Origin: Rhodoferax sp.
GTDB taxonomy: Bacteria; Pseudomonadota; Gammaproteobacteria; Burkholderiales; Burkholderiaceae_C
DNA: 64,000 nt
Direction: 5' to 3'
Assembly (NCBI RefSeq): GCF_030653815.1
Contig: NZ_JAURYQ010000017.1
Location: forward strand, 17,370-81,369
Below the pieces are notes generated by a model. It was not told where the DNA came from, searched no databases, and saw only the letters and a list, made by a program, of their open reading frames with translations. This document shows, one piece after another, positions 1-52,433 of the stretch. The number at the start of each line of letters is the position of its first letter. The stretch's first letter is position 1. Position numbers and translations under genes: made by a program.

Positions 1-606
1 TACGTCAACCCGGGGCGCGACAGCCACGAGGAAGCGCTCAAGGTGCACGGCATCACCACCGAATTCCTCAAGGACAAACCCAAGTTTGTCGAAGTGGCCC
101 AGGACCTGCTGGACTACCTGAAAGACGCGCACGTGGTCATCCACAACGCGCCGTTCGATCTGGGTTTTTTGAACATGGAGCTGGCGCTCATCAAGCAGCC
201 GCCGGTGAAAAGTGTGGTGGCCAGCATCACCGACACGCTCGTCATGGCCAAGGAGCTGTTTCCGGGTAAGCGCAACTCGCTCGACGCCCTGTGTGATCGC
301 CTTGAGGTCGACAACTCGGGGCGCACGCTGCACGGCGCGCTGCTCGATGCCGAGCTGCTGGCCGACATGTACATCAACCTCACCCGTGGCCAGGATGCTC
401 TGCTCATGGACGAGACCCCGACCACTGATGCCAACGGCGCATGTGTCACCGCGCTGGACCTGAGCCAGTTTGTGCTGCCGGTCATCTGCGCCAACGAGCA
501 GGAACTGGCCGCGCACGAAGACGTTTTGAAGCAAATCGACAAGTCAAGCAATGCCAAGACACTTTGGCGCTCGCAAGAGCAAAAAACGCCAGAAACTGTG
601 CCATAA
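1..606 (+). CDS. dnaQ: DNA polymerase III epsilon subunit (5' end outside window)
   Basis: DEDDh exonuclease motifs ExoII (VVIHNAPFDLGFLNME) and ExoIII (HGALLDAELLA). The frame is open from the window start; the ORF-track start at 43 is internal. Confidence 0.95.
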   Translation, partial: YVNPGRDSHEEALKVHGITTEFLKDKPKFVEVAQDLLDYLKDAHVVIHNAPFDLGFLNMELALIKQPPVKSVVASITDTLVMAKELFPGKRNSLDALCDRLEVDNSGRTLHGALLDAELLADMYINLTRGQDALLMDETPTTDANGACVTALDLSQFVLPVICANEQELAAHEDVLKQIDKSSNAKTLWRSQEQKTPETVP

Positions 607-631
607 TTCGCGTCTTTCCTGAACAGGGAAA

Positions 632-706
632 GGGCGGTTAGCTCAGGGGTAGAGCACTGCATTCACACTGCAGGGGTCACAAGTTCGAAACTTGTACTGC
701 CCACCA
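632..706 (+). tRNA. tRNA-Val(CAC)
   Basis: gggcggttagctcaggggtagagc...ctgca-ttCACac-tgcag...gttcgaaac...ctgcccacca; cloverleaf with encoded CCA. Confidence 0.95.
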
Positions 707-719
707 AAAATACCAATTG

Positions 720-757
720 AATCAAGCACTTAGCGGTAACGCTAGGTGCTTTTTTGT
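720..757 (+). terminator. Intrinsic terminator hairpin after tRNA-Val(CAC), containing an IHF consensus box
   Basis: aagcacttagcg-gtaa-cgctaggtgctt followed by a T run; aatcaagcactta matches WATCAANNNNTTR. Confidence 0.75.
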
Positions 758-1278
758 TGGCTGGACGGACAAAATACGGACAACCGCTTGTTTCAGTGGG
801 CAAGGAGCACCCCAAAACAGCTTCAGTAGCAGCAAGTCTTTCAAAGTCTTTGGGGCCACAGCCGGGGATATATCAATTTCGTCGTTCCGAGTCTGGACAG
901 TTGCGCGTAGGTGAACAACGTACAGATCTGGCTTTGCGCTTGCTGGAGCAATCGGTTCTTGGCTTTCTGACCATGGTGCAGCCGGGCCATTTTGTGGCTG
1001 AAGTGGCCGCTGTGTTGGCCCGACTCAAACCGACCGACGCGCACGACGACCTGGACGATTTTTTGAACATCAGCTTCAGCACTCTGGCCAGTCCTGAAAT
1101 TTATGCCACGGCGTTGGACTTGGCCTTGCGCTATCGGCATCACCTGTTTGACACGCTCTACCATGCGGTGGCGCTAAACACCCCGGGCGCGGTGTTGGTC
1201 ACAGCGGATGAGCGCTACTACAACAAAACCCGGCTTGAGGGGCAGATCAGCTTGCTGGCAGATTTCAGATTCCCATGA
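754..1278 (+). pseudogene. N-terminally truncated PIN-domain (VapC-like) protein
   Basis: The C-terminal half has PIN motifs (EVAAVLAR; LFDTLYHAVA; LVTADERY). The N-terminal VxDxS motif is missing, the upstream frame is not PIN-like, and no antitoxin is adjacent. Confidence 0.6.
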
Positions 1279-1374
1279 CTCCCACCGCTTGTCTGCCCGA
1301 CCTGCCCATTTGTCGGTGGCGCGCGCGGGGCGATAAGATCGGCGGGCAAAATCCATTTGAAGGCACCCAACTCC

Positions 1375-1770
1375 ATGAACACCAGACAACAACGCGGCTT
1401 TACCCTGATTGAACTCATGATCACCGTGGCGGTGATCGGGATTCTGGCGGCGGTGGCTTACCCGTCTTATACGCAATATGTTATTCGAGCAAACAGGTCA
1501 GCAGCGCAGGCGCAAATGATGGACATAGCCAACCGACAGCAGCAGTTCTTGCTGGCTAACCGGGCCTATGTTTCTGAGACTGACACGCTTTGGACTAATA
1601 GCTATTCTTTGCCCTCTGAGGTGGATGCCAAATATAGCTACACCATCGCACCTGGTACGGGTACCGTCCCTTCTTTTGTAATTACTTTTACCCCCAAAGG
1701 CTCTCAGTCTAGCGATGGCGTGCTCACACTAAACAGCGAAGGGGCCAAAACTCCAATTGCCAAATGGTAG
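1375..1770 (+). CDS. pilE: Type IV minor pilin PilE
   Basis: Class III signal [27 protein letters not shown]; RS-AQ--MM---QQQF PilE core; ATG at 1375. Confidence 0.9.
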
Positions 1771-2342
1771 CGCCAGCACTCACCATTGCGCAGCGACGGC
1801 AGCGTGGGTCCTCGATGATCGAGGTGCTGGTCACACTCGTTATCGTCTCATTTGGTTTGCTCGGTTTGGCTGGACTTCAAACCCGCCTGCAAACGTCTGA
1901 AATGGAGTCATACCAGCGAAGCCAGGCATTGCTGCTCCTCAATGACATGGCGAACCGTATTACGACGAACCGCAGCAACGCAGCAGCCTACGTTTCTGGC
2001 GCAGACGTGGATAGTCCGTTGGGGGCAGGAATGAATTGCCCTACCTCTACTGCTTCGGTTGTTGAGGCCGATTTGCGCGAATGGTGCAACGCGCTACAAG
2101 GCGCGGGCGAGACGACTGGAGGCAACAATGTCGGTGCCATGATTGGCGGACGCGGATGCGTGGAAGACCTTGGCAGCGGCGAATACTTTATTACAGTTGC
2201 CTGGCAGGGTCTGATACCCATTGCTGCCCCGCCAGCTTCAGTCGCTTGTGGTGCGAATGGTTACGATACTGCGGGTTCCTCATGTGTCAACGATCTTTGT
2301 CGACGAACTGTGACAACGTTGGTGCGTATTGCGACATTGTGA
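1764..2342 (+). CDS. pilV: Type IV minor pilin PilV
   Basis: [26 protein letters not shown]...RSQA-LL--DM--RI PilV signature. Confidence 0.9.
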
Positions 2343-3520
2343 TGAACAAGCATTCCCGTCACATATTGCAAGCTGGCTTTACGCTGGTTGAGTTAATGGT
2401 GTCCATGGCCATCGGCCTGTTGATTGTGCTGGCGCTGATCACACTCCTCATCAACGTCAACCGCAATAACAGCGAAATGGCCAAGACCAATAGCCAGATT
2501 GAAAACGGCCGATTCGCCATCCAGTTGATTCAGAACGATCTGGTTCATGCTGGATTCTGGGGTGGTTTTGTTCCACAGTTTGACGACTTGACTTTTGAAA
2601 CAGTTCCCAATGATGCCCCCAGCGCCACCGTCCCCGATCCCTGTCTAGCTTACTCGGCACCCTGGACGGCGGCCTACAAGAAAGACATTATTGGCATCTC
2701 ACTCCAAGCTTATGGCACTACTCCGCCGTCAGGGGCAGGTTGTGTCACCAATTTCGCTACCAATAAAAAGGTCAATACCGATGTGCTGGTGGTGCGGCAT
2801 GCCGAAACCTGTTTGCCCGGTGTGGGTAATTGCGAGGCCGACACTGCGGGCAAACTGTATTTGCAGGCATCGCTATGCGAACTGGAAAACGCCACACCGT
2901 ACGTGCTAGATACCACGGGGTTCACGCTTCACAAGCGAACCTGTGTTGGAACCGGAACGCCGCCGGCCTTGCCCATCACGTCGACCGATTTTGCGGACAA
3001 ACGCAAATTCATTTCCAATATCTATTACATCCGTGATTACGCCGTGACAGCCGGCGACGGCATACCCACCTTGATGCGGTCACAGTTTGACCTGGCTGCT
3101 GGCACGTTGGCGCATCAGGCCGCTGAACCCCTGATCGAAGGCATCGAAGGCTTTAGCGTGGAATTCGGAATCGACAGTGTTAGCGACTCCGGAGGCGCTG
3201 TGGTGCCAACTGCCGCCATCGTGTGGGCAGACCCAAGTGCCAAAACTTCACCCACCAATCGGGGCGACGGTAATCCCGAATACCCATTCGTGCAATGTAC
3301 AGACGCTGTCCCTTGTACTGCTGCCCAGTTGGCCAATGTTGTTGCGGTCAAGCTGCATGTACTGGTTCGTGCCAGAGAGGTCTCACCCGGCTATACCGAT
3401 ACCAAAACCTACACCTTGGGCGCCACCACCCTAGGCCCTTTTAATGATCGCTTCAAACGCCATGCCTTTGCCACTACCGTGCGCCTGACCAATGTTGCCG
3501 GCAGACGGGAGACCCCATGA
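2342..3520 (+). CDS. pilW: Type IV minor pilin PilW
   Basis: AG-FTLVELMVSMAIGL; ENGRFAIQLIQNDLVHAGFWG; ATG at 2342 overlaps the pilV stop (ORF track starts 87 codons too early). Confidence 0.9.
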   Translation: MNKHSRHILQAGFTLVELMVSMAIGLLIVLALITLLINVNRNNSEMAKTNSQIENGRFAIQLIQNDLVHAGFWGGFVPQFDDLTFETVPNDAPSATVPDPCLAYSAPWTAAYKKDIIGISLQAYGTTPPSGAGCVTNFATNKKVNTDVLVVRHAETCLPGVGNCEADTAGKLYLQASLCELENATPYVLDTTGFTLHKRTCVGTGTPPALPITSTDFADKRKFISNIYYIRDYAVTAGDGIPTLMRSQFDLAAGTLAHQAAEPLIEGIEGFSVEFGIDSVSDSGGAVVPTAAIVWADPSAKTSPTNRGDGNPEYPFVQCTDAVPCTAAQLANVVAVKLHVLVRAREVSPGYTDTKTYTLGATTLGPFNDRFKRHAFATTVRLTNVAGRRETP

Positions 3521-4026: not shown

Positions 4027-7000
4027 ATGCACAACCATCTTTTTAAAAGAGTACTCGCTGCTGGCTTGCTTACGTTCACTCTGGTGGCGTCGGCGGAAGA
4101 CATTGATCTGTTTGTGGGGGCGGATCCTGTTACTACCGAGGTGCCAAATGTGTTGATCATTATGGATAACACGGCTAATTGGAATACTGCATTTGACAAT
4201 GAAATGGCTGCTTTGGCTGCCACTGTCGAAGCACTCCCGGCTGATAAATTCAGAGTAGGCATCATGTTTGCGAACGAAACGGGTAACCCTAACAATAACA
4301 CACGTGGGGGATATGTGAGGGCAGCTATTCGTCTGCTAAATAGTGCTAACAAAACAACATATCAGAATTTGATTAATAGTTTTGAGAAGATAGGAGATGC
4401 AGGTAATGGTGGTATTGCAAGTTTGGTAATGGCTGAGGCGTATCGCTATTTTTCAGCTGGAACTCCATACGGCGGCAATGGAAAAGTAAAAACTGACTAT
4501 ATTGGAAATATTTCTGGTACGGCACAATCAAAAGCCATATATGCACTTTCTGGTAACGCGTTGGAGTCGTTCAATGATACAACGTATGTTTCCCCGATTG
4601 CTTCCGGTTGTCAAAAGAACTTCATTATTTATATTAGCAACGGTGCATCAAATGACAATACTTCTGTTTCCAATCAAGCCAGTTCCATGCTGACAGCTGC
4701 GGCAACGTCGTTGGGAATAACAGGAGCGACCATACCAATACCTATTTCACCGAGTGGGTCGCAGGATAATTTCAGCGATGAATGGGCTCGTTTTATGAAA
4801 AAAAGCGATCTAAACATCACTACCTACACGGTGGATGTGAATAAAGTTACGACCGGGCAAGGTCCTGGTTGGACAGCACTTCTGAAAAGTATGGCTGGGG
4901 TGAGTAGTGGAAAGTACTTTGATGTAAGCTCAGCTGCAAATGCAGGTCAAGAAATTAAAGATGCACTTGGGGATATTTTTTCAGAAATTCAGTCTGTTAA
5001 TAGTGTATTTGCTTCTGTCAGTTTACCAGTTAGCGTAAGCACTCAAGGCACCTATTTAAATCAAGTTTATGTTGGAATGTTTAGGCCTGATCAAAATGCC
5101 TATCCGCGCTGGTCTGGTAATTTGAAGCAATACAAGATTGGGTTTATCAATGGTGTATTGAGGCTACAAGATGCTGACAGCAAAGACGCCAACAACAGTC
5201 AGACCGGCTTTATTACTGAGTGCGCACGCAGTTTTTGGACACCCAGTGTCTTGGATACTTATTGGACATTCAAGCCACAAGGGGACTGCATTACTATTGC
5301 AAATTCAGATGTTTCAAATTATCCGGACGGTAACATTGTAGAAAAAGGTGGACAGGGATTTACACGCCGGGCCTCCATTACCCGCACAGTTAAAACGTGC
5401 TCTTCAACTTTTGCATCTTGTACAAGTTTGACCGATTTTAATAACACTAATGTTACCCCGGGAATGCTTGGCCTTGGCGCAGAGGATACGACTGAGCGGG
5501 ATAGTTTGATTAACTGGATGAAAGGCTTGGATGTAGCCGTACCTATTCCGAATCCTGATGGAATCGATGGCGATGAGAATGTCAACGGGATCACCTTGAC
5601 TGAAATGCGCCCTTCAGTGCATGGTGATGTGGTGCACTCGAGGCCGGTTGCGATCAATTTTGGATCGGACGCTTCACCTCAGGTAGTCGTGTTTTATGGT
5701 GGCAACGACGGTATGTTGCGCGCAATCAATGGCAATCGTCCTGACAAACCAACGCCCAATATTGGTGCGGTCACCCCCGGCGGGGAATTGTGGGCCTTTG
5801 TTCCCCCCGAGTTTTATCGGCAAATCAAACGTATCCGTGACAACACGACGCAAATAAGCTTTCCTGGCAACACTTCGGGCACGCCTACGCCGCTGCCAAA
5901 ACCTTATGGTATCGATGGACCAGTCTCGGCCTATCAGGGGAATGTCAGTGGAACGCCTAAAGCTTTCATTTTCGCTACGATGAGGCGCGGCGGGCGTGCG
6001 CTGTACGCTTTTGACGTGACGACGCCAGCAAGTCCTGCGCTTAAATGGAAAAAGGGTTGTCCTAATAATTTTTCTGCTTTAGGTACTGTGGACGACACGA
6101 ATTGCAGCACAGGTTTTAGTGCCATTGGTCAAACATGGTCTACACCGCAAGTGATTAAGTCCAGTGGCTACGGGTCTGGAACTGCGCCTATGCTCATCAT
6201 GGGTGGGGGCTATGACACCTGCCAGGATGCCGATTCGAACTCTTGCACAACTGCGAATAAGGGGAAAAGTGTTTATGTGATGGATGCGGATACTGGTACG
6301 CTGCTCAAGACGCTGACTACGGACCGCAGCGTGGTCGGTGATGTCTTTGTGGTGCCGGACGCGACTGGCTTGATCAAGTACGCTTATGCGACCGACTTGG
6401 GCGGTAATGTCTACCGTATTTCTGGCATTAACGCCAACACTCCCATAGGAGCTACAACGCCGGCGAACTGGACAATTACCAAGGTCGCCTCGCTTGGCGG
6501 TAGCGGTACTGCGGCTCGAAAATTCATGTTTTCCACCGATGTAGTCGAGGATGGTAATAATATTGGTACTTATTATCTGTTGGTGGGGTCAGGTGACCGT
6601 GAAAAGCCCTTGCTTGGTTACACGGCAACTTCGGCGGTAACCAACTATTTCTTCATGATAAAGGATAAGCCGACAGACGCCACCTGGTTGACATCGCAAA
6701 ATGTTACCTGCGGCGCAGATGTGATCTGCTTGGCTTCATTGACACCGATATTGACCGGCACTAATCCGGAACAGACAGATCTGAATACTTCAAAAGGTTG
6801 GTATCTTGGTTTGCGTTCAACTGAGCAAGTGGTCACCAGCGCAGTCACACTTTTTGGCGTAGTGACATTCAGTACGCACCAGCCTGCCGTAGCCGTTGTG
6901 GGTTCTTGTGGTTCGAACTTGGGTGAGGCCCGTGTATATAACATCAATTACCTCAATGCTGCACCGGGTAGGGGAACTAGTCGCGATGCTGATCGTGCAG

Positions 7001-7176: not shown

Positions 7177-7751
7177 TCTGCTCAATAAACAGGTTGCAAA
7201 TTCCAAGAGGTCGTACGTTGAGTCAGAAAAGTAGGACGGTGGGAGTTGTCAATGACCTTGTGCATCGTCTTGAAGGAGGCTTCACCCTGATCGAACTCAT
7301 GGTCACGGTCGCCGTACTTGGCGTGCTGGCAGCCCTAGCTGCACCATCTTTCAATGAAGCCATACTGAGCAACAAGCTGACTTCCTATGCCAACAGCTTT
7401 GTAGCAAGCGCGACGCTGGCCCGCAGTGAAGCAATCAAGCGTAACGTAATCGTCAAACTTTGTCGCTCGGCTGATGGCTTGACCTGCGCTAGCTCAGGCA
7501 CTTGGCAACAGGGCTGGATTGTTTTGGGTGGGACTACCGTCATTCAACACCAACAAGCCCTCTCAACGGATTACCGGCTGACCGGGAACGTGTACAGCAT
7601 CGATTTTCAGCCAATTGGTGCCGGTGCCACCGCCGCCAACTTGACGTTATGCAGGGCGACACCTTCTCCAGGCGGTCAGGAACGTGTCATCTCGATCAGC
7701 GCGACGGGGCGCGCATCCGTCAGTACCACCAGAACAGGCTCCTGTTCCTGA
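7173..7751 (+). CDS. fimT: GspH/FimT-family minor pilin (start uncertain, 7173-7260)
   Basis: [26 protein letters not shown]; ARSEAIKRN; WQQGWIV. Confidence 0.85.
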   Translation: MICSINRLQIPRGRTLSQKSRTVGVVNDLVHRLEGGFTLIELMVTVAVLGVLAALAAPSFNEAILSNKLTSYANSFVASATLARSEAIKRNVIVKLCRSADGLTCASSGTWQQGWIVLGGTTVIQHQQALSTDYRLTGNVYSIDFQPIGAGATAANLTLCRATPSPGGQERVISISATGRASVSTTRTGSCS

Positions 7752-40391: not shown

Positions 40392-40630
40392 GCCGCTGCC
40401 ACGGGGGGGGCGCTGATGTCGGCAAACAGGGCCAGCGTGCGCTCGGCCTCTTCGGGGTCGAGTTTGGACAGGGCGTAACCCGCATGCAAAATCACGTAAT
40501 CACCCACCTGCACATCGTCAAGCAGCGCCAGCGAGATTTTCTTTTTGACGCCGCCCAGATCGACCAGGCCCATGTCGCCCGCTGGGCCGCAGCCGACTTC
40601 AATCACCTTGACCGGAAGTGCCAGACACAT
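40388..40630 (-). CDS. hypC: Hydrogenase maturation chaperone HypC
   Basis: MCLALP N-terminus; VGDYVILHAGYA; ATG at 40630 overlaps the hypF stop. Confidence 0.95.
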   Translation of the reverse strand: MCLALPVKVIEVGCGPAGDMGLVDLGGVKKKISLALLDDVQVGDYVILHAGYALSKLDPEEAERTLALFADISAPPVAAA

Positions 40631-43035
40631 CAGTTTTTCTCCAAATAATGCATGGCCACCCAGGCTTGCCCGAGCGCGATGCTGCCATCGCCCGGCGAAG
40701 TCATGCGGGGCGCCAGCACCATGATGCCATGGCGTTCCAGATTTTGCCGCAGGTGGGTGGACACCAGGGCATTGAGAAAGCAGCCGCCGCCCCAGGCCAG
40801 GGTGGTCAATCCGGTGGATTGTGAGGCTCGCAGCACCCAATCGGTCAAGGCGGTCACCAGGGTGGCATGGAAGCTGGCGGCGGCCTGTGCGGCATCACCG
40901 GCATCGATCAGCGAAGCCAGCAGCGGTAATAAATTCAGTTGCCCCTCGTTGCTGATGGCATAGCCACCCGGCAGGGGTTCGGGCCAGCCATGGGTATCGA
41001 CAAAACCTGTGGCCGCCTGCTCCAGCAGCATGGCGGCTTGGGCCTCGTAAGCCAGGGTGGCGCTGATGCCGAGCAGGCCCGCCGCTGCGTCGAACAAGCG
41101 GCCCATGCTGGACGTGCGCGGACAGTTGAACTGGCGCAGCAGCATGGCCGCCACCGTGCTGGCGGCTGGGTCCTGACAGCGGCGTACGATCTCGTCATTG
41201 CGGCCGAGCTCATGTAGCACCGCAGCCGCCATGCGCCAGGGCGCGCGTGCGGCACTGTCAGCGCCGGGCATCGGAAGCGGTTGCAGATGGCCCAGGCGCG
41301 CGACCGTTGCGCCATCGACCCTGAGCAGCTCGCCGCCCCAGGCCGTGCCATCGGTGCCCAGGCCGACACCGTCCAGCGCCAGACCCAGCACCGGGCCGTA
41401 CCAGCCGTGCTCGGCACAGACGGCGCCCAAGTGGGCATGGTGGTGCTGCACCGCCAAGGTGGGCAGGTCGTGTTGCTGCGCATAGGCCAAGGCAGCGCGC
41501 GTGCTGTAGCTGTCGGGGTGCAGGTCGTGCGCGACCAAAGCTGGTTGGGTATCAAGCAGAGCGCACAGACCTAGCACGGTTTCATCCAGAAATTCGCAGC
41601 TTGCCACGTCGTCCAGGTCGCCGATGTGCGGGGACAAAAATGCTTCATCGCCCCGGGTCACGCAGACAGTGTTCTTGAGGTGGGCACCAAAGGCCAGCAC
41701 CGATGGCCCGGCATGGGTAAGGCGAATGGCGGCCGGTGCGTAGCCGCGACTGCGGCGGACAAATTGCCAGGTCTTGCCCACGGGGCGAATCACGCTGTCA
41801 TCGCAGCGCGCCACGATCTCCCGGTCATGGTCCAGAAAGGCGTCGGCAATGCCAGCCAGGCGGGTGTGGGCTTCTTGTGTATCCCGCACCATGGGCTCAC
41901 CGCCCGGGTTGGCGCTGGTCATCACCAGCACCATGGCCTGCGGCTCGACAAGCCAGGCGCTGCCCGTGGGGCGCCCCGCGGCTTCATGGAACAACAGGTA
42001 GTGGATCGGCGTGGTGGGCAGCATCACGCCCAGGCTCAGCAGGCCCGGGGCGACACCGGGCAGGGCGACCGCACCAGCCGTTGTGGCCGGCAGCAGCACG
42101 ATGGGACGCTCGCGACTTGCCAGCAGCGAGCGTTCACTTTCGTCGTGCGCGCCCAGCATCGGGTCTTCGTCACTGCGAGCGTAGCGCGGCAGTCCATGGC
42201 TGCGGAAGTCATGGATTGCTTCACTGCGTTCGCAATGACGAATGTGAGCGAAAGGTGCTAGGCTGGCGACATTGGCCAGCATCACGGCAAAGGGCTTGGC
42301 GTCACGGTTCTTGCGCAAGCGCAGCCGCGCCACCGCTTCAACGTTGCGCGCGTCACAGGCCAGATGAAAGCCGCCGAGGCCCTTGATGGCGACGATGCCG
42401 CCGCTTTGCAGCAGGTGCAAGCTTTGCGTGATCGGGTCGCCGGCGATGGTCTGGCCTTGTGCATCCGATAAACTCAGGCGCGGTCCGCATTGCAGACAAC
42501 AGGTGGTCTCGGCGTGAAAGCGTCGGTTGGCGGGGGCAGTGTATTCAGCACTGCAGTCCGGACACAGCGGAAACGCGGCCATGCTGGTCTGTGGTCGGTC
42601 GTAGGGCAGGGCGCGCGTGACGGTAAAACGTGGGCCGCAATGGGTGCAGGTGATGAAGGCGTGGCGCCAGCGCCTGCTGGATGGGTCAAACAGTTCCTCA
42701 AGGCAATCGGCACACACGGCCACATCAGGGCCAATCGCGGTGGCGGCCTGTCCCGATTGGCTGGCGATGATGCTGAACGCGGTGAAGGACTCTGCCGCCA
42801 GGCCCCGCGTCTGCACGCTGTCAACACGTGCCAGCGGTGGGGCATCGGTGCGCAGGCGCGCTCGCAATTCAGCCAAGGCGAAAGGGCTGCCCTGAGCCAG
42901 GATCTCAACGCCCTGGGTATCATTGCGCACCCAGCCGCTCAGATTGAGTTGCTGCGCCAGTCGCCAGACAAAGGGTCTGAAACCGACGCCTTGAACAATG
43001 CCGGTAACGCGGAGGTGCTGGGTTTGCAAGGTCAA
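40630..43035 (-). CDS. hypF: Carbamoyltransferase HypF (probable TTG start), with a ~30-aa in-frame insertion
   Basis: [14 protein letters not shown] acylphosphatase domain; two CxxC-CxxC fingers; [13 protein letters not shown]; MTSAN; QHHHAH; DGVGLG-DG--WGGE; SSMGRLFDA; [10 protein letters not shown]. Confidence 0.95.
42166..42242. repeat. 77-nt palindromic element inside hypF
   Basis: 33-nt arms at 42166-42198 and 42210-42242 (26/33 complementary) around an 11-nt loop; translates as [10 protein letters not shown]...[11 protein letters not shown]. Confidence 0.9.
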
Positions 43036-43883
43036 TGCCGTCGAACAGCACGCGCCTGGGCCACGCCCGCGCGCAAAAAATCCAGCCATTCATCCATGCC
43101 TGCGCCACTGGTGGCAGAGACTTGAATCACCTTGATCTCGGGGTTGACCCGGCGCGCATAGCCAATGGCGGCCTTCACGTCGTAATTCAGGTAGGGCAGC
43201 AGGTCGGTTTTGTTGAGCAACATCAGGCTGGCGGCACGGAACATGTCGGGGTACTTGATGGGTTTGTCTTCGCCCTCGGTGACCGACAGGATCACCACCT
43301 TGTGCGCTTCGCCCAGGTCGAACGCTGCCGGGCACACCAGGTTGCCCACGTTTTCGATCATCAGCAGGGACTCTTCGGCCAGTTTGAGCTGGGCCAGGGC
43401 GTGGCCCACCATGTGGGCATCGAGATGGCAGCCCTTGCCTGTGTTGATCTGAATCGCCTGCGCGCCAGTGGCGCGAATGCGGTCGGCATCCTGGCTGGTT
43501 TGCTGGTCGCCTTCGATCACGGCGACTGTCTGCTGTTTCAGCAGTTCGATGGTCTTGCATAGCAAGGTGGTTTTGCCCGAGCCCGGGCTGGAGACCAGGT
43601 TCAGCGCAAAAATGCCGCGCTCGGAAAGTAGCCGGCGGTTGGCTTGGGCATAGGCCTTGTTTTTGGCCAGGATGTCCTGCTCGATTTGCACCCTGCGGGT
43701 GGGCGTGACGCCCGGCGCATGGGAATGCGCAGGTGCTGCGTCATGCGTGTGTTCGTGGTCATGGGGGTGTTCGTGCGCGTGGCGGGTGCCATCGGCGTGC
43801 ACATGTTCATGGACGTGGTCATGTTGCACTGCCGCGCCGTCGATCCTGACCTCACCTTCACCGCAACCACATGTCACACACAT
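43032..43883 (-). CDS. hypB: Nickel-insertion GTPase HypB
   Basis: MCVTCGC, His-rich stretch, [34 protein letters not shown]. Confidence 0.97.
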
Positions 43884-52013: not shown

Positions 52014-52433
52014 ATTCAACTCATTGGGGATGCCGTGCGACAACCCCAGCCGTGGGGCTAACCCCTGGACGACGCTCAAACGGACTGCCAAAACAAAGTC
52101 GCTCCGCTTTGTTCGCCTTGTCAGTCCGTTTCAGCCCAGCAGAAAGGTTCAGTCTCGTGTCCGAATGGTCACGCAAGTTTTGCAATCTTGGTCAATTTGA
52201 AAAAATTCTTTGCGAATTGCCCGAAACCCAGCCAAGCTTGCAAGGCACCCGGTTTGCCTAATGCCACCCCGACAACGATCGTTGTCGCAACATCCGAAAG
52301 GATGATTCAACTCATTGGGGATGTCATTCGACAACCCCAGCCGTGAGGCTAACCCCTGGGCGACGCTCAAACGGACTGTCAAAACAAAGTCGCTCCGCTT
52401 TGTTTGCCTTGTCAGTCCGTTTCAGCCCAACAG
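52014..52433. repeat. Two 129-bp direct repeats (52014-52142 and 52305-52433), each with a long hairpin
   Basis: 8 mismatches in 129 nt, offset 291 bp; aaacggactg...aacaaag-loop-ctttgtt...cagtccgttt stem. Confidence 0.92.

Follow-up and report, generated by a model that had tools for sequence, protein, structure and literature searches.

A 64,000-nt stretch of the Rhodoferax sp. contig NZ_JAURYQ010000017.1 (positions 17,370 to 81,369 of the forward strand), referred to below as the window, was analysed with respect to a palindromic DNA element lying within hypF, the gene encoding carbamoyltransferase HypF. The element is a pair of inverted CGTC-tagged repetitive extragenic palindromic (REP) units located on the antisense strand of hypF, and the reading frame of the gene is preserved through the repeat. 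The features of the locus are as follows.

40630..43089, minus strand: hypF, an intact open reading frame (ORF) of 819 aa that hosts the insert, identified by its translation, by Pfam and Protein Data Bank (PDB) matches and by the names of its homologues.
42145..42240, minus strand: the net inserted block of 96 nt (32 codons), composed of the REP dimer (73 nt) and a 23-nt remnant of a longer composite repeat.
42168..42198, plus strand: arm A, a CGTC-tagged REP/SRM-like unit, CGTC-ACTGC-GA-GC-GTA-GC-GCG-GCAGT-CCATG.
42199..42209, no strand assigned: an 11-nt spacer, GCTGCGGAAGT, separating arms A and B.
42210..42240, minus strand: arm B, the second CGTC-tagged unit, CGTC-ATTGC-GA-AC-GCA-GT-GAA-GCAAT-CCATG.
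42145..42167, minus strand: the 23-nt remnant, with the coding strand AAGACCCGATGCTGGGCGCGCAC, of a module found together with the dimer in related alleles and also at intergenic loci.

Pfam and PDB comparisons of the host protein showed the order acylphosphatase domain, two zinc-finger motifs, YrdC-like domain, Kae1-like domain. The Pfam matches were HypF_C_2 (1e-69), Sua5_yciO_yrdC (4e-37), HypF_C, two copies of zf-HYPF, and Acylphosphatase; solved HypF structures, 3VTH among them, were matched with E-values of 1e-151 to 2e-151, and the nearest homologues are annotated as HypF of Rhodoferax sp. When the protein was compared with 3VTH, residues 280-316 (37 residues) were found to replace 6 residues of the structure, and the insertion point falls at residues 265-270 of 3VTH. 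The AlphaFold2 model of the full protein, built with 72 homologues, had a mean pLDDT of 65, with values below 50 at residues 282-316 and over much of the region 114-450. The insert was modelled between a short helix (274-277) and a helix at 315-325, in a part where the model is unreliable. Because the model was poor in the YrdC-like domain, we can only infer that the insert occupies a surface loop.

The palindrome extends over positions 42166-42242 and consists of the arm TTCGTCACTGCGAGCGTAGCGCGGCAGTCCATG (42166-42198), the loop GCTGCGGAAGT and the arm CATGGATTGCTTCACTGCGTTCGCAATGACGAA (42210-42242). An earlier note on this DNA had described it as a 77-nt hairpin with an 11-nt loop in which 26 of 33 arm positions were paired and some mismatches were of the G-T kind. 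This description was exact: between the two arms of 33 nt there are 26 Watson-Crick and 4 G·T pairs, and an inverted-repeat search lengthened the arms to 36 nt with 78% complementarity. The folding energy of the plus strand as DNA was -28.2 kcal/mol (z = -2.26; 6 of 200 shuffles were equal or better), and that of the mRNA-sense RNA was -49.1 kcal/mol (z = -3.95), a stability reached by none of 200 shuffles.

Each arm carries an unpaired CGTC tag at its outer end (42168-42171 on the plus strand and 42240-42237 on the minus strand). The tag is followed by a 5-bp lower stem starting with A, a GA/GNN internal loop and a 2-bp upper stem closed by a 3-nt loop; the arms end in ...GCAGT-CCA and ...GCAAT-CCA, respectively. 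In arm A, the lower stem is ACTGC/GCAGT and the upper stem is GC/GC with a triloop, followed by the CCA tail. In arm B, the corresponding stems are ATTGC/GCAAT and AC/GT, each of which is perfect internally and carries compensated changes relative to arm A; across 141 arms of the family, both stems covary. The element is thus a heterodimer, arm B being another stem variant than arm A, and since the two arms are different, internally perfect variants, only 26 of the 33 positions pair between them. The assignment of the palindrome to the CGTC-tagged REP-like elements in the earlier note was right with respect to the tag, the stem starting with A, the CCA tail and the inverted dimer. Of the six possible reading frames of the consensus arm, five were open, and therefore read-through of such a repeat is likely. 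No Rfam family matched the element in the window, nor in six loci that bear the repeat, and a literature search with the sequence string of the repeat gave no match. The search for RNA runs returned only one marginal wastewater run, which contained 5% of the sampled words of the query.

An alignment was made of the 120 HypF clusters closest to the window protein, which have 64-93% identity and for the most part bear the name Rhodoferax. One hundred of them contained a canonical segment of 24 residues (…AQVSETERALL…), that is, a short linker without an insert, and relative to these the net gain in the window protein was 32 aa. It had been proposed in the earlier note that about 30 aa were added in frame where HypF normally has a short linker, and this was borne out; the segment was not common to all orthologues, as most of them, including the empty sister allele L001 (loci are designated by L and a number), lacked it. 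In-frame inserts of 17-94 aa were present at the same codon in 18 of the 120 clusters, and 3 clusters carried in-frame deletion scars with 1-2 extra residues.

The DNA of eleven hypF alleles was then compared, and the inserted block was delimited by comparison with the empty allele L001 and with the other insert alleles. The minimal form, L003, is a 58-nt palindrome, CGTCATTGCGAACGAAGTGAAGCAATCCATGGATCGCCGCGCTTCGCTCGCGATGACG, without a spacer, the arms of which join at CCATGG. In the window, L209, L002 and L004, an 11-nt spacer is located between the CATG repeats. L002 contains an extra 47-nt module behind the dimer, of which 23 nt are left in the window; the longer form of this remnant, GACGAAGTCTCTGTTCAAGGTCCGTGTGCGGTATCGAGCCCGAT..., is found in L002 at the same place. 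In L007 and L006, the composite is present in the opposite orientation, with the module inverted, and is nested in the left arm behind its first 13 nt; L006, with two copies of the composite, encodes the longest insert, 94 aa. L005 carries another arm subfamily (CGTCATTGCGAGGAGCGCAGCGACGCGGCAATCC) that is read in a different frame (VIARSAATRQS). The scar alleles are internal deletions of the element, L211 reading CGTCATTGCGAAC|AGCGC and L210 reading CGTC|GCGATGAC, in which the sequence between short direct repeats was lost.

The junctions ATT|CGTCAT and ATGACG|AAC, or degraded forms of them, are common to all the insert alleles, and all of these alleles are in frame. The empty allele L212 and the filled allele L007 are about 98% identical at the DNA level; between them, 21 nt are replaced cleanly by 147 nt, with identical flanks. 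A target-site duplication, as expected for a miniature inverted-repeat transposable element, was sought at the junctions and in the L212/L007 comparison, and none was found; the check for a target duplication suggested in the earlier note was thus negative. The state of the insert was patchy across the neighbour-joining tree of HypF. The shared junctions, the scars, the nested changes, and the diverged site-proximal bases together with homogenised flanks would fit one old insertion followed by a long-lived polymorphism.

The window originated from groundwater metagenomes, and the contigs of four runs (X1-X4) were mapped to the region. The filled allele was found in runs X1 (depth 83.5) and X2. 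The empty allele, recognised as a joint 42126→42262 with 39 nt identical to L001, was found in X1 (depth 66-69), X3 (157.5) and X4 (47.5). In X1, the depths of the filled and empty alleles sum to the backbone depth of about 150. The depth over positions 42174-42255 was 445-3300, that over the palindrome was 3-20 times the depth of the backbone, and many different loose-end flanks were attached. Therefore, the arm is highly repeated in the community.

Comparison of the window with its empty sister revealed one further feature of the locus.

42127..42496 (gene positions 594-963), no strand assigned: a recombination patch, the only internal stretch that differs from the empty sister L001, found by sliding-window identity and the list of differences.

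The window hypF is identical to L001 at gene positions 61-593 and shows a single difference over positions 964-2211, with many differences across 594-963. Most of this patch (42125-42397, gene positions 693-965) has just 2 differences from L209, yet the backbone of L209, which carries the same 32-aa insert, is only about 85% identical to the window. Therefore, it may be concluded that diverged lineages exchanged the insert patch by homologous recombination. Protein divergence near the site was not raised in other filled/empty sister pairs, and control pairs were equally heterogeneous; the conclusion is accordingly limited to the trio of the window, L001 and L209. Differences between the window and L001 form a second cluster at the 3' end of hypF (40634-40786, gene positions 2304-2456), which suggests another recombination patch, unrelated to the palindrome.

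The distribution of the repeat was studied by a scan with the arm pattern GTCAYYGCGARCNNNGYGNNGCRRTCCATG, in which each species was represented by one genome; at least 120 loci, spread over many phyla, were found. Among the matches listed, to which the counts in this paragraph refer, the hosts were many Bradyrhizobium, Rhodoferax and other Comamonadaceae, Limnohabitans, Porphyrobacter, Marinospirillum and Inquilinus, as well as a candidate phyla radiation (CPR) bacterium, Firmicutes (a Lachnospiraceae metagenome-assembled genome, MAG) and Desulfovibrionaceae MAGs. The consensus of the family reads CGTCATTGCGAGCGAAGCGAAGCAATCCATG…GGATTGCTTCG…CTCGCAATGACG, with a conserved CGTC tag. Outward-tagged dimers accounted for 113 of the 141 arms, with a median dimer length of 78 nt; the 73-nt dimer of the window is typical of the family. 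The search pattern permitted any combination at Y5Y6/R23R24, and these lower-stem positions were consistent with Watson-Crick pairing in 137 arms (ATTGC/GCAAT, ACTGC/GCAGT, ATCGC/GCGAT). Position 11/17 was G-C in 129 arms and A-T in 12, and was discordant in none. Each arm is a two-tier DNA hairpin that folds alone, and this hairpin is what the family conserves.

The composite of the L002 type recurs nearly unchanged in an apparently intergenic Rhodoferax cluster (L013) and also in L060 and L101, so that the module of the 23-nt remnant is found outside hypF as well. In one Rhodoferax MAG, JAMPXE01, hypF bears a scar (L210), a dimer lies between genes (L021) and a different gene contains a copy in frame (L062). 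Other in-frame copies in Rhodoferax were found in a DUF2126 amidoligase (1308 bits, insert at residues 663-704) and in PutA, where the match to the Aldedh domain is split in two. The absence of similar palindromes elsewhere, which the earlier note had named as evidence against its reading, was not observed: they occur at many loci in Rhodoferax and Comamonadaceae MAGs and in many other bacteria, and the depth over the palindrome is 3-20 times that of the backbone. Taken together with the open frame, this dispersed family supports the proposal of that note that a selfish repeat has entered an enzyme of a betaproteobacterium, where it would be translated.

Several other arrangements of the repeat were observed. 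In an Alcaligenaceae MAG, an oxidoreductase gene with ADH_zinc_N and GFO_IDH_MocA domains (L063:1727-4009) contains two in-frame single REP arms, each of which reads MDRHASLAMT (residues 435-444 and 557-566). In a Rickettsiales MAG, a 1563-aa ORF resembling isoleucyl-tRNA synthetase (L056:2888-7576) was seen by eye to contain, in frame, the REP-coded …PRNDVIASAAKQSM… together with segments resembling a DUF559-type endonuclease and an acetyltransferase; it appears to be one essential gene with several inserted modules. In a Limnohabitans MAG (L028:44-407), the whole 67-nt REP dimer (CGTCATCGCGAGCG...CTCGCAATGACGCCCCC) is present in six head-to-tail copies. A CRISPR reading of these six evenly spaced matches was rejected, as the 67-nt units are whole palindromes and there are no unique spacers. 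In an Azoarcus MAG (L042), two single arms 1.3 kb apart (5079-5108 and 6402-6431) are each followed by the same non-palindromic sequence of about 70 nt; they may represent the termini of a longer repeat in which one REP arm is used. In the window itself, no second copy of the element was found in the 64 kb, where it is single-copy. A 15-nt exact match to the core of arm B (ACGCAGTGAAGCAAT, minus strand) at 7422-7436 (blastn-short E = 0.006) has no CGTC tag or partner arm alongside and is either a chance match or a very decayed arm. An unrelated inverted repeat at 52365-52426, with 24-nt arms GCTCAAACGGACTGTCAAAACAAA / TTTGCCTTGTCAGTCCGTTTCAGC, 83% complementarity and a 14-nt spacer, was the sole match in an inverted-repeat scan of the whole window (9-nt seed, arms of at least 24 nt, at most 60 nt apart).

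Repeats of this kind have been connected with a nuclease. According to Chenal et al. 2025 (Nat Commun 16:2388, PMC11893778), Ssn proteins are single-domain GIY-YIG single-strand nucleases of the cd10448 family that bind NTS/SRM hairpins (CGTCATTCCCGCGMAVGCGGGAATCYRG) only as single-stranded DNA (ssDNA) and on one strand only and cut a few nucleotides upstream; SRMs were nearby in 71% of Ssn homologues and on both sides in 42%. The search for a linked GIY-YIG nuclease gene that the earlier note had recommended was successful at other loci, where the same arm type flanks Ssn-like genes. In Porphyrobacter L070, a left arm and an inverted right arm exactly enclose a 101-aa GIY-YIG ORF, and the CCATGG of the left arm provides the start codon of this ORF. 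In Marinospirillum L015, palindromes surround a second GIY-YIG gene. Scanning metagenomes with these proteins yielded 80 loci, of which 67 (84%) had arm heads or tails within about 200 nt of the GIY-YIG gene. The nested architecture, with the gene between the arms, was found at 33 of 66 evaluable loci. The density of hairpins was 6.4 per kb near the gene versus 0.5 per kb further off, a 12.5-fold difference. Left and right arms match within one GIY-YIG element, and the stems vary between elements. GIY-YIG ORFs are flanked by arms of the ATTGCGAGCG type in L070 (where the nesting is exact), L129, L131, L132 and L135, and the canonical NTS flanks some relatives (L165, L177).

The catalytic residues of the GIY-YIG proteins were spaced as Y6/Y17/E64 (offset +2), and PF01541 was the sole domain found in them. 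NCBIfam and PDB sequence searches gave weak matches only, to the group I intron endonuclease family and UPF0213 BH0048. Gene callers often extend the ORF into the arm, producing N-terminal sequences such as VIARSAATWQS or RHCEERSD. The GIY-YIG/arm association described here is the already published Ssn family (PMC11893778). With one query, at least 6224 clusters of the Ssn-like family were found at E <= 1e-10, and very many members were on contigs of just 0.5-1.5 kb. Such short contigs are expected if the flanking repeats break short-read assemblies, and the copy numbers of the family in MAGs are therefore probably underestimated.

The element was compared with the known systems that it resembles. 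The CGTC-tagged REP superfamily was defined by Di Nocera, De Gregorio and Rocco 2013 (BMC Genomics 14:522, PMC3733652), who catalogued in-frame intragenic CGTC and GTAG REPs in several phyla, with intragenic dimers encoding 20-30 aa, and equated RPE-4 and RPE-6 of Rickettsia (RPE, Rickettsia palindromic element) and dRS3 of Neisseria with CGTC REPs. In this superfamily the tag may also be TGTC or CCTC, and the stem begins with A-T pairs. The element shares with these repeats the unpaired CGTC tag, the stem starting with A and the CCA tail in both arms. The family likewise consists mostly of inverted dimers, often heterodimers, is dispersed and mostly intergenic with a minority in frame, and has no RAYT association. 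Families 1-4 in that work differ from the window arm in that they have a continuous 8-9 bp stem with a loop of 4-5 nt, whereas the upper stem of the window arm with its triloop is a mini-hairpin of the GCGAAGC type; atypical loops were described there for Bradyrhizobium CGTC-1. Furthermore, the host here is a betaproteobacterium, whereas the CGTC REPs of that work are mainly from Alphaproteobacteria. hypF is not among the targets named in its main text, in which a term search did not find 'hydrogenase', and neither an allelic series at one codon nor a population polymorphism is given there.

The likeness to the Ssn/SRM system is in the arm architecture, which is that of NTS (CGTCAT-stem-loop-stem-ATCC), and in that the same arm type lies on both sides of single-domain GIY-YIG genes of about 95-100 aa (L070, L129, L131, L132, L135). 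The values of 84% nearby and 52% on both sides obtained here resemble the 71% and 42% reported for Ssn homologues (PMC11893778). NTS are rarely intragenic (2% in N. meningitidis), and translated copies are not discussed in that paper. With RPEs, the element shares its position as an in-frame palindromic repeat in an otherwise functional enzyme gene, with open frames through the repeat; this likeness is drawn from descriptions. Unlike RPEs, it is found in a free-living groundwater betaproteobacterium and not in an obligate intracellular alphaproteobacterium, and it is shorter than RPE-1. In common with REPINs and RAYTs (Bertels & Rainey 2011, PMC3116915), there are hairpin-repeat doublets that form a larger hairpin and behave as the non-autonomous partners of a small gene, on both sides of which the repeats are found. 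However, the tag is CGTC and not GTAG, and the gene encodes a GIY-YIG nuclease and not an HUH tyrosine transposase.

Considering these data, the insert is very probably an in-frame dimer of two inverted, outward-tagged CGTC-REP/Ssn-related hairpins with a 23-nt scrap of an accompanying module, which is tolerated in the linker of the YrdC domain of HypF and belongs to an Ssn-linked family. The insertion would be an old one within a Rhodoferax clade, and later nested insertions, a duplication, spacer loss and internal deletions would have produced the other alleles, the survivors at the site being only those versions that preserve the hypF frame. The linker between two helices of the YrdC-like domain apparently accommodates the extra residues; the insert peptide would be translated and neutral, tolerated and not selected for function. 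Filled and empty alleles would coexist and be shuffled between lineages by homologous recombination of short patches, as was found for the window allele. The spread and maintenance of the family would depend on small GIY-YIG Ssn nucleases and not on RAYT tyrosine transposases. An Ssn of the host or of the community may recognise each arm on its own strand, bind the hairpin in ssDNA and nick it a few nucleotides upstream of the CGTC tag, so that an outward-tagged dimer would be nicked just outside both ends on opposite strands. Such activity may underlie the maintenance, spread or local recombination of the repeats.

Some observations weigh against this interpretation. No GIY-YIG ORF was found in the 64-kb window, and only one copy of the repeat lies there; therefore, neither a cognate nuclease nor multicopy status is established for the source genome. 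The window arms fail the degenerate SRM motif of Chenal et al.: neither matches HGTCWYN(0-2)YYVSBRHN(0-5)WNVSBRGN(0-2)RNCYNB, which had no match in the whole window against about 0.5 expected. The failure is due to the motif requiring YY after the stem start, where the arms have GC, and the arm type of the window is a variant outside the published SRM search definition. The stem, with its 5 bp, internal loop and 2 bp, also departs from the continuous stem of CGTC families 1-4. No target-site duplication or other transposition signature is visible at the junctions. A single origin is indistinguishable from strict site-specific re-insertion, given that L005 has another subfamily and frame and that L006 and L007 are inverted. 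Finally, the translation and the tolerance of the insert are deduced from the intact ORF, and the AlphaFold2 model is unreliable in the domain concerned.

Other explanations were considered. The general look of the element, a REP doublet making a long hairpin, is that of a REPIN mobilised by RAYT, an HUH/Y1 tyrosine transposase, as for the GTAG-type REPs of Pseudomonas and E. coli. For the present element this is extremely improbable: its tag is CGTC and not the GTAG/GTGG head of RAYT-associated REPs, no RAYT gene flanked by the arms was found, and the genes that the arms do flank are GIY-YIG genes. The linked HUH-type gene envisaged in the earlier note did not appear, as jackhmmer seeded with E. 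coli RayT matched none of the 11,022 ORFs (>=50 aa) of the window and L001-L127, i.e., about 1 Mb of repeat-flanking DNA; this agrees with the report that CGTC units flank neither RAYT nor IS200 genes (PMC3733652). An origin outside any mobile family, by local template switching or as an assembly artefact, might be suggested by the single copy in the 64-kb window. It was refuted by the independent assembly of the same allele in L209 (JGI) and in the Logan contigs of X1 and X2, by the near-identical arms and the composite module at loci other than hypF, and by the depth spike with heterogeneous flanks over the palindrome.

The remaining explanations concern the effect on the host. An insertion of 32 aa in an enzyme domain could do damage, and the earlier note had considered relaxed selection on the hyp operon; as a sign of incipient pseudogenisation of hypF or of the operon, the palindrome is very improbably to be understood. 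The ORF is full-length and all of its domains score strongly, every invariant column of the 72-sequence alignment is retained in the window HypF, the frame is kept in all 18 insert clusters and in the 3 scars, and hypA, hypB, hypC, hypD and hypE, next to hypF, were annotated as intact in orthologous contigs that carry the same insert. The intact HypF, the kept frames and the in-frame copies in other genuine genes therefore argue for a tolerated passenger in an operon that is not decaying. Conversely, the insert might be an adaptive loop of HypF, selected as protein or as a regulatory mRNA hairpin, since the insert class persists across diverged lineages, the filled allele has a frequency of about one half in one population and the mRNA hairpin is strong (z = -3.95). 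This is improbable because the inserts range from 17 to 94 aa, vary in sequence and occur in two orientations and two reading frames; conservation tracks the DNA hairpin, in whose stems changes are compensated, rather than the peptide; close relatives include deletion scars and many empty alleles; and the same elements are mostly intergenic elsewhere.

Other additions to the operon were observed in related Rhodoferax. The gap between hypD and hypE contains small modules of selfish appearance, namely a DUF1016/YhcG nuclease-like gene in L005 (6281-7330) and a toxin-antitoxin-like pair, DUF2281 and PIN, in L006 (14666-15455) and L007 (6586-7375). L006 and L007 also have hypF and hypC set apart by an additional small ORF and about 500 bp. 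It seems that passengers are collected by the hyp operon of this Rhodoferax clade.

To our knowledge, transposition of CGTC/SRM units has never been demonstrated. It might be that SRM/CGTC-REP dimers spread through populations mainly as recombination cassettes rather than by transposition. Ssn would nick outside both ends, on opposite strands, in the ssDNA of transformation, conjugation or replication, and the nicks would stimulate short-patch conversion between filled and empty alleles, a homing-like drive without an intron or intein. We regard this as speculative and rather unlikely. If true, the hypF site, with its trans-lineage filled/empty polymorphism and its 370-bp patch, would be a natural example of such a drive.

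The preferred interpretation, a tolerated CGTC-REP dimer of an Ssn-linked family, is of a known kind, as in-frame CGTC REPs have been described since 2013 (PMC3733652) and their Ssn partner since 2025 (PMC11893778). The novelty of a palindrome in a coding region, which the earlier note had taken to be known mainly from Rickettsia RPEs, was overstated because in-frame CGTC and GTAG REPs had been catalogued in several phyla. The novelty lies in which gene and clade host the repeat, in the series of alleles at a single codon, and in a polymorphism that segregates and has its conversion patch mapped. It is also new that a very common arm type (ATTGC-GA-GCGAAGC-GAA-GCAAT) escapes the published SRM motif; since the motif misses this widespread type, the published counts of Ssn-related repeats are likely to be underestimates.

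These findings extend CGTC-REP/Ssn-related repeats beyond intergenic DNA and the reduced genomes of endosymbionts. In free-living Rhodoferax, judging from the open frames, such repeats would be read through as protein in at least hypF, the DUF2126 amidoligase and PutA. hypF provides an unusually rich natural series of empty alleles, filled alleles of 17-94 aa, and inverted, duplicated and scarred alleles, with filled and empty forms segregating in one groundwater population. The series makes it possible to test the tolerance of the YrdC-like domain of HypF to insertions, the action of Ssn on the copies, and the contributions of recombination and transposition to the spread of the repeats.

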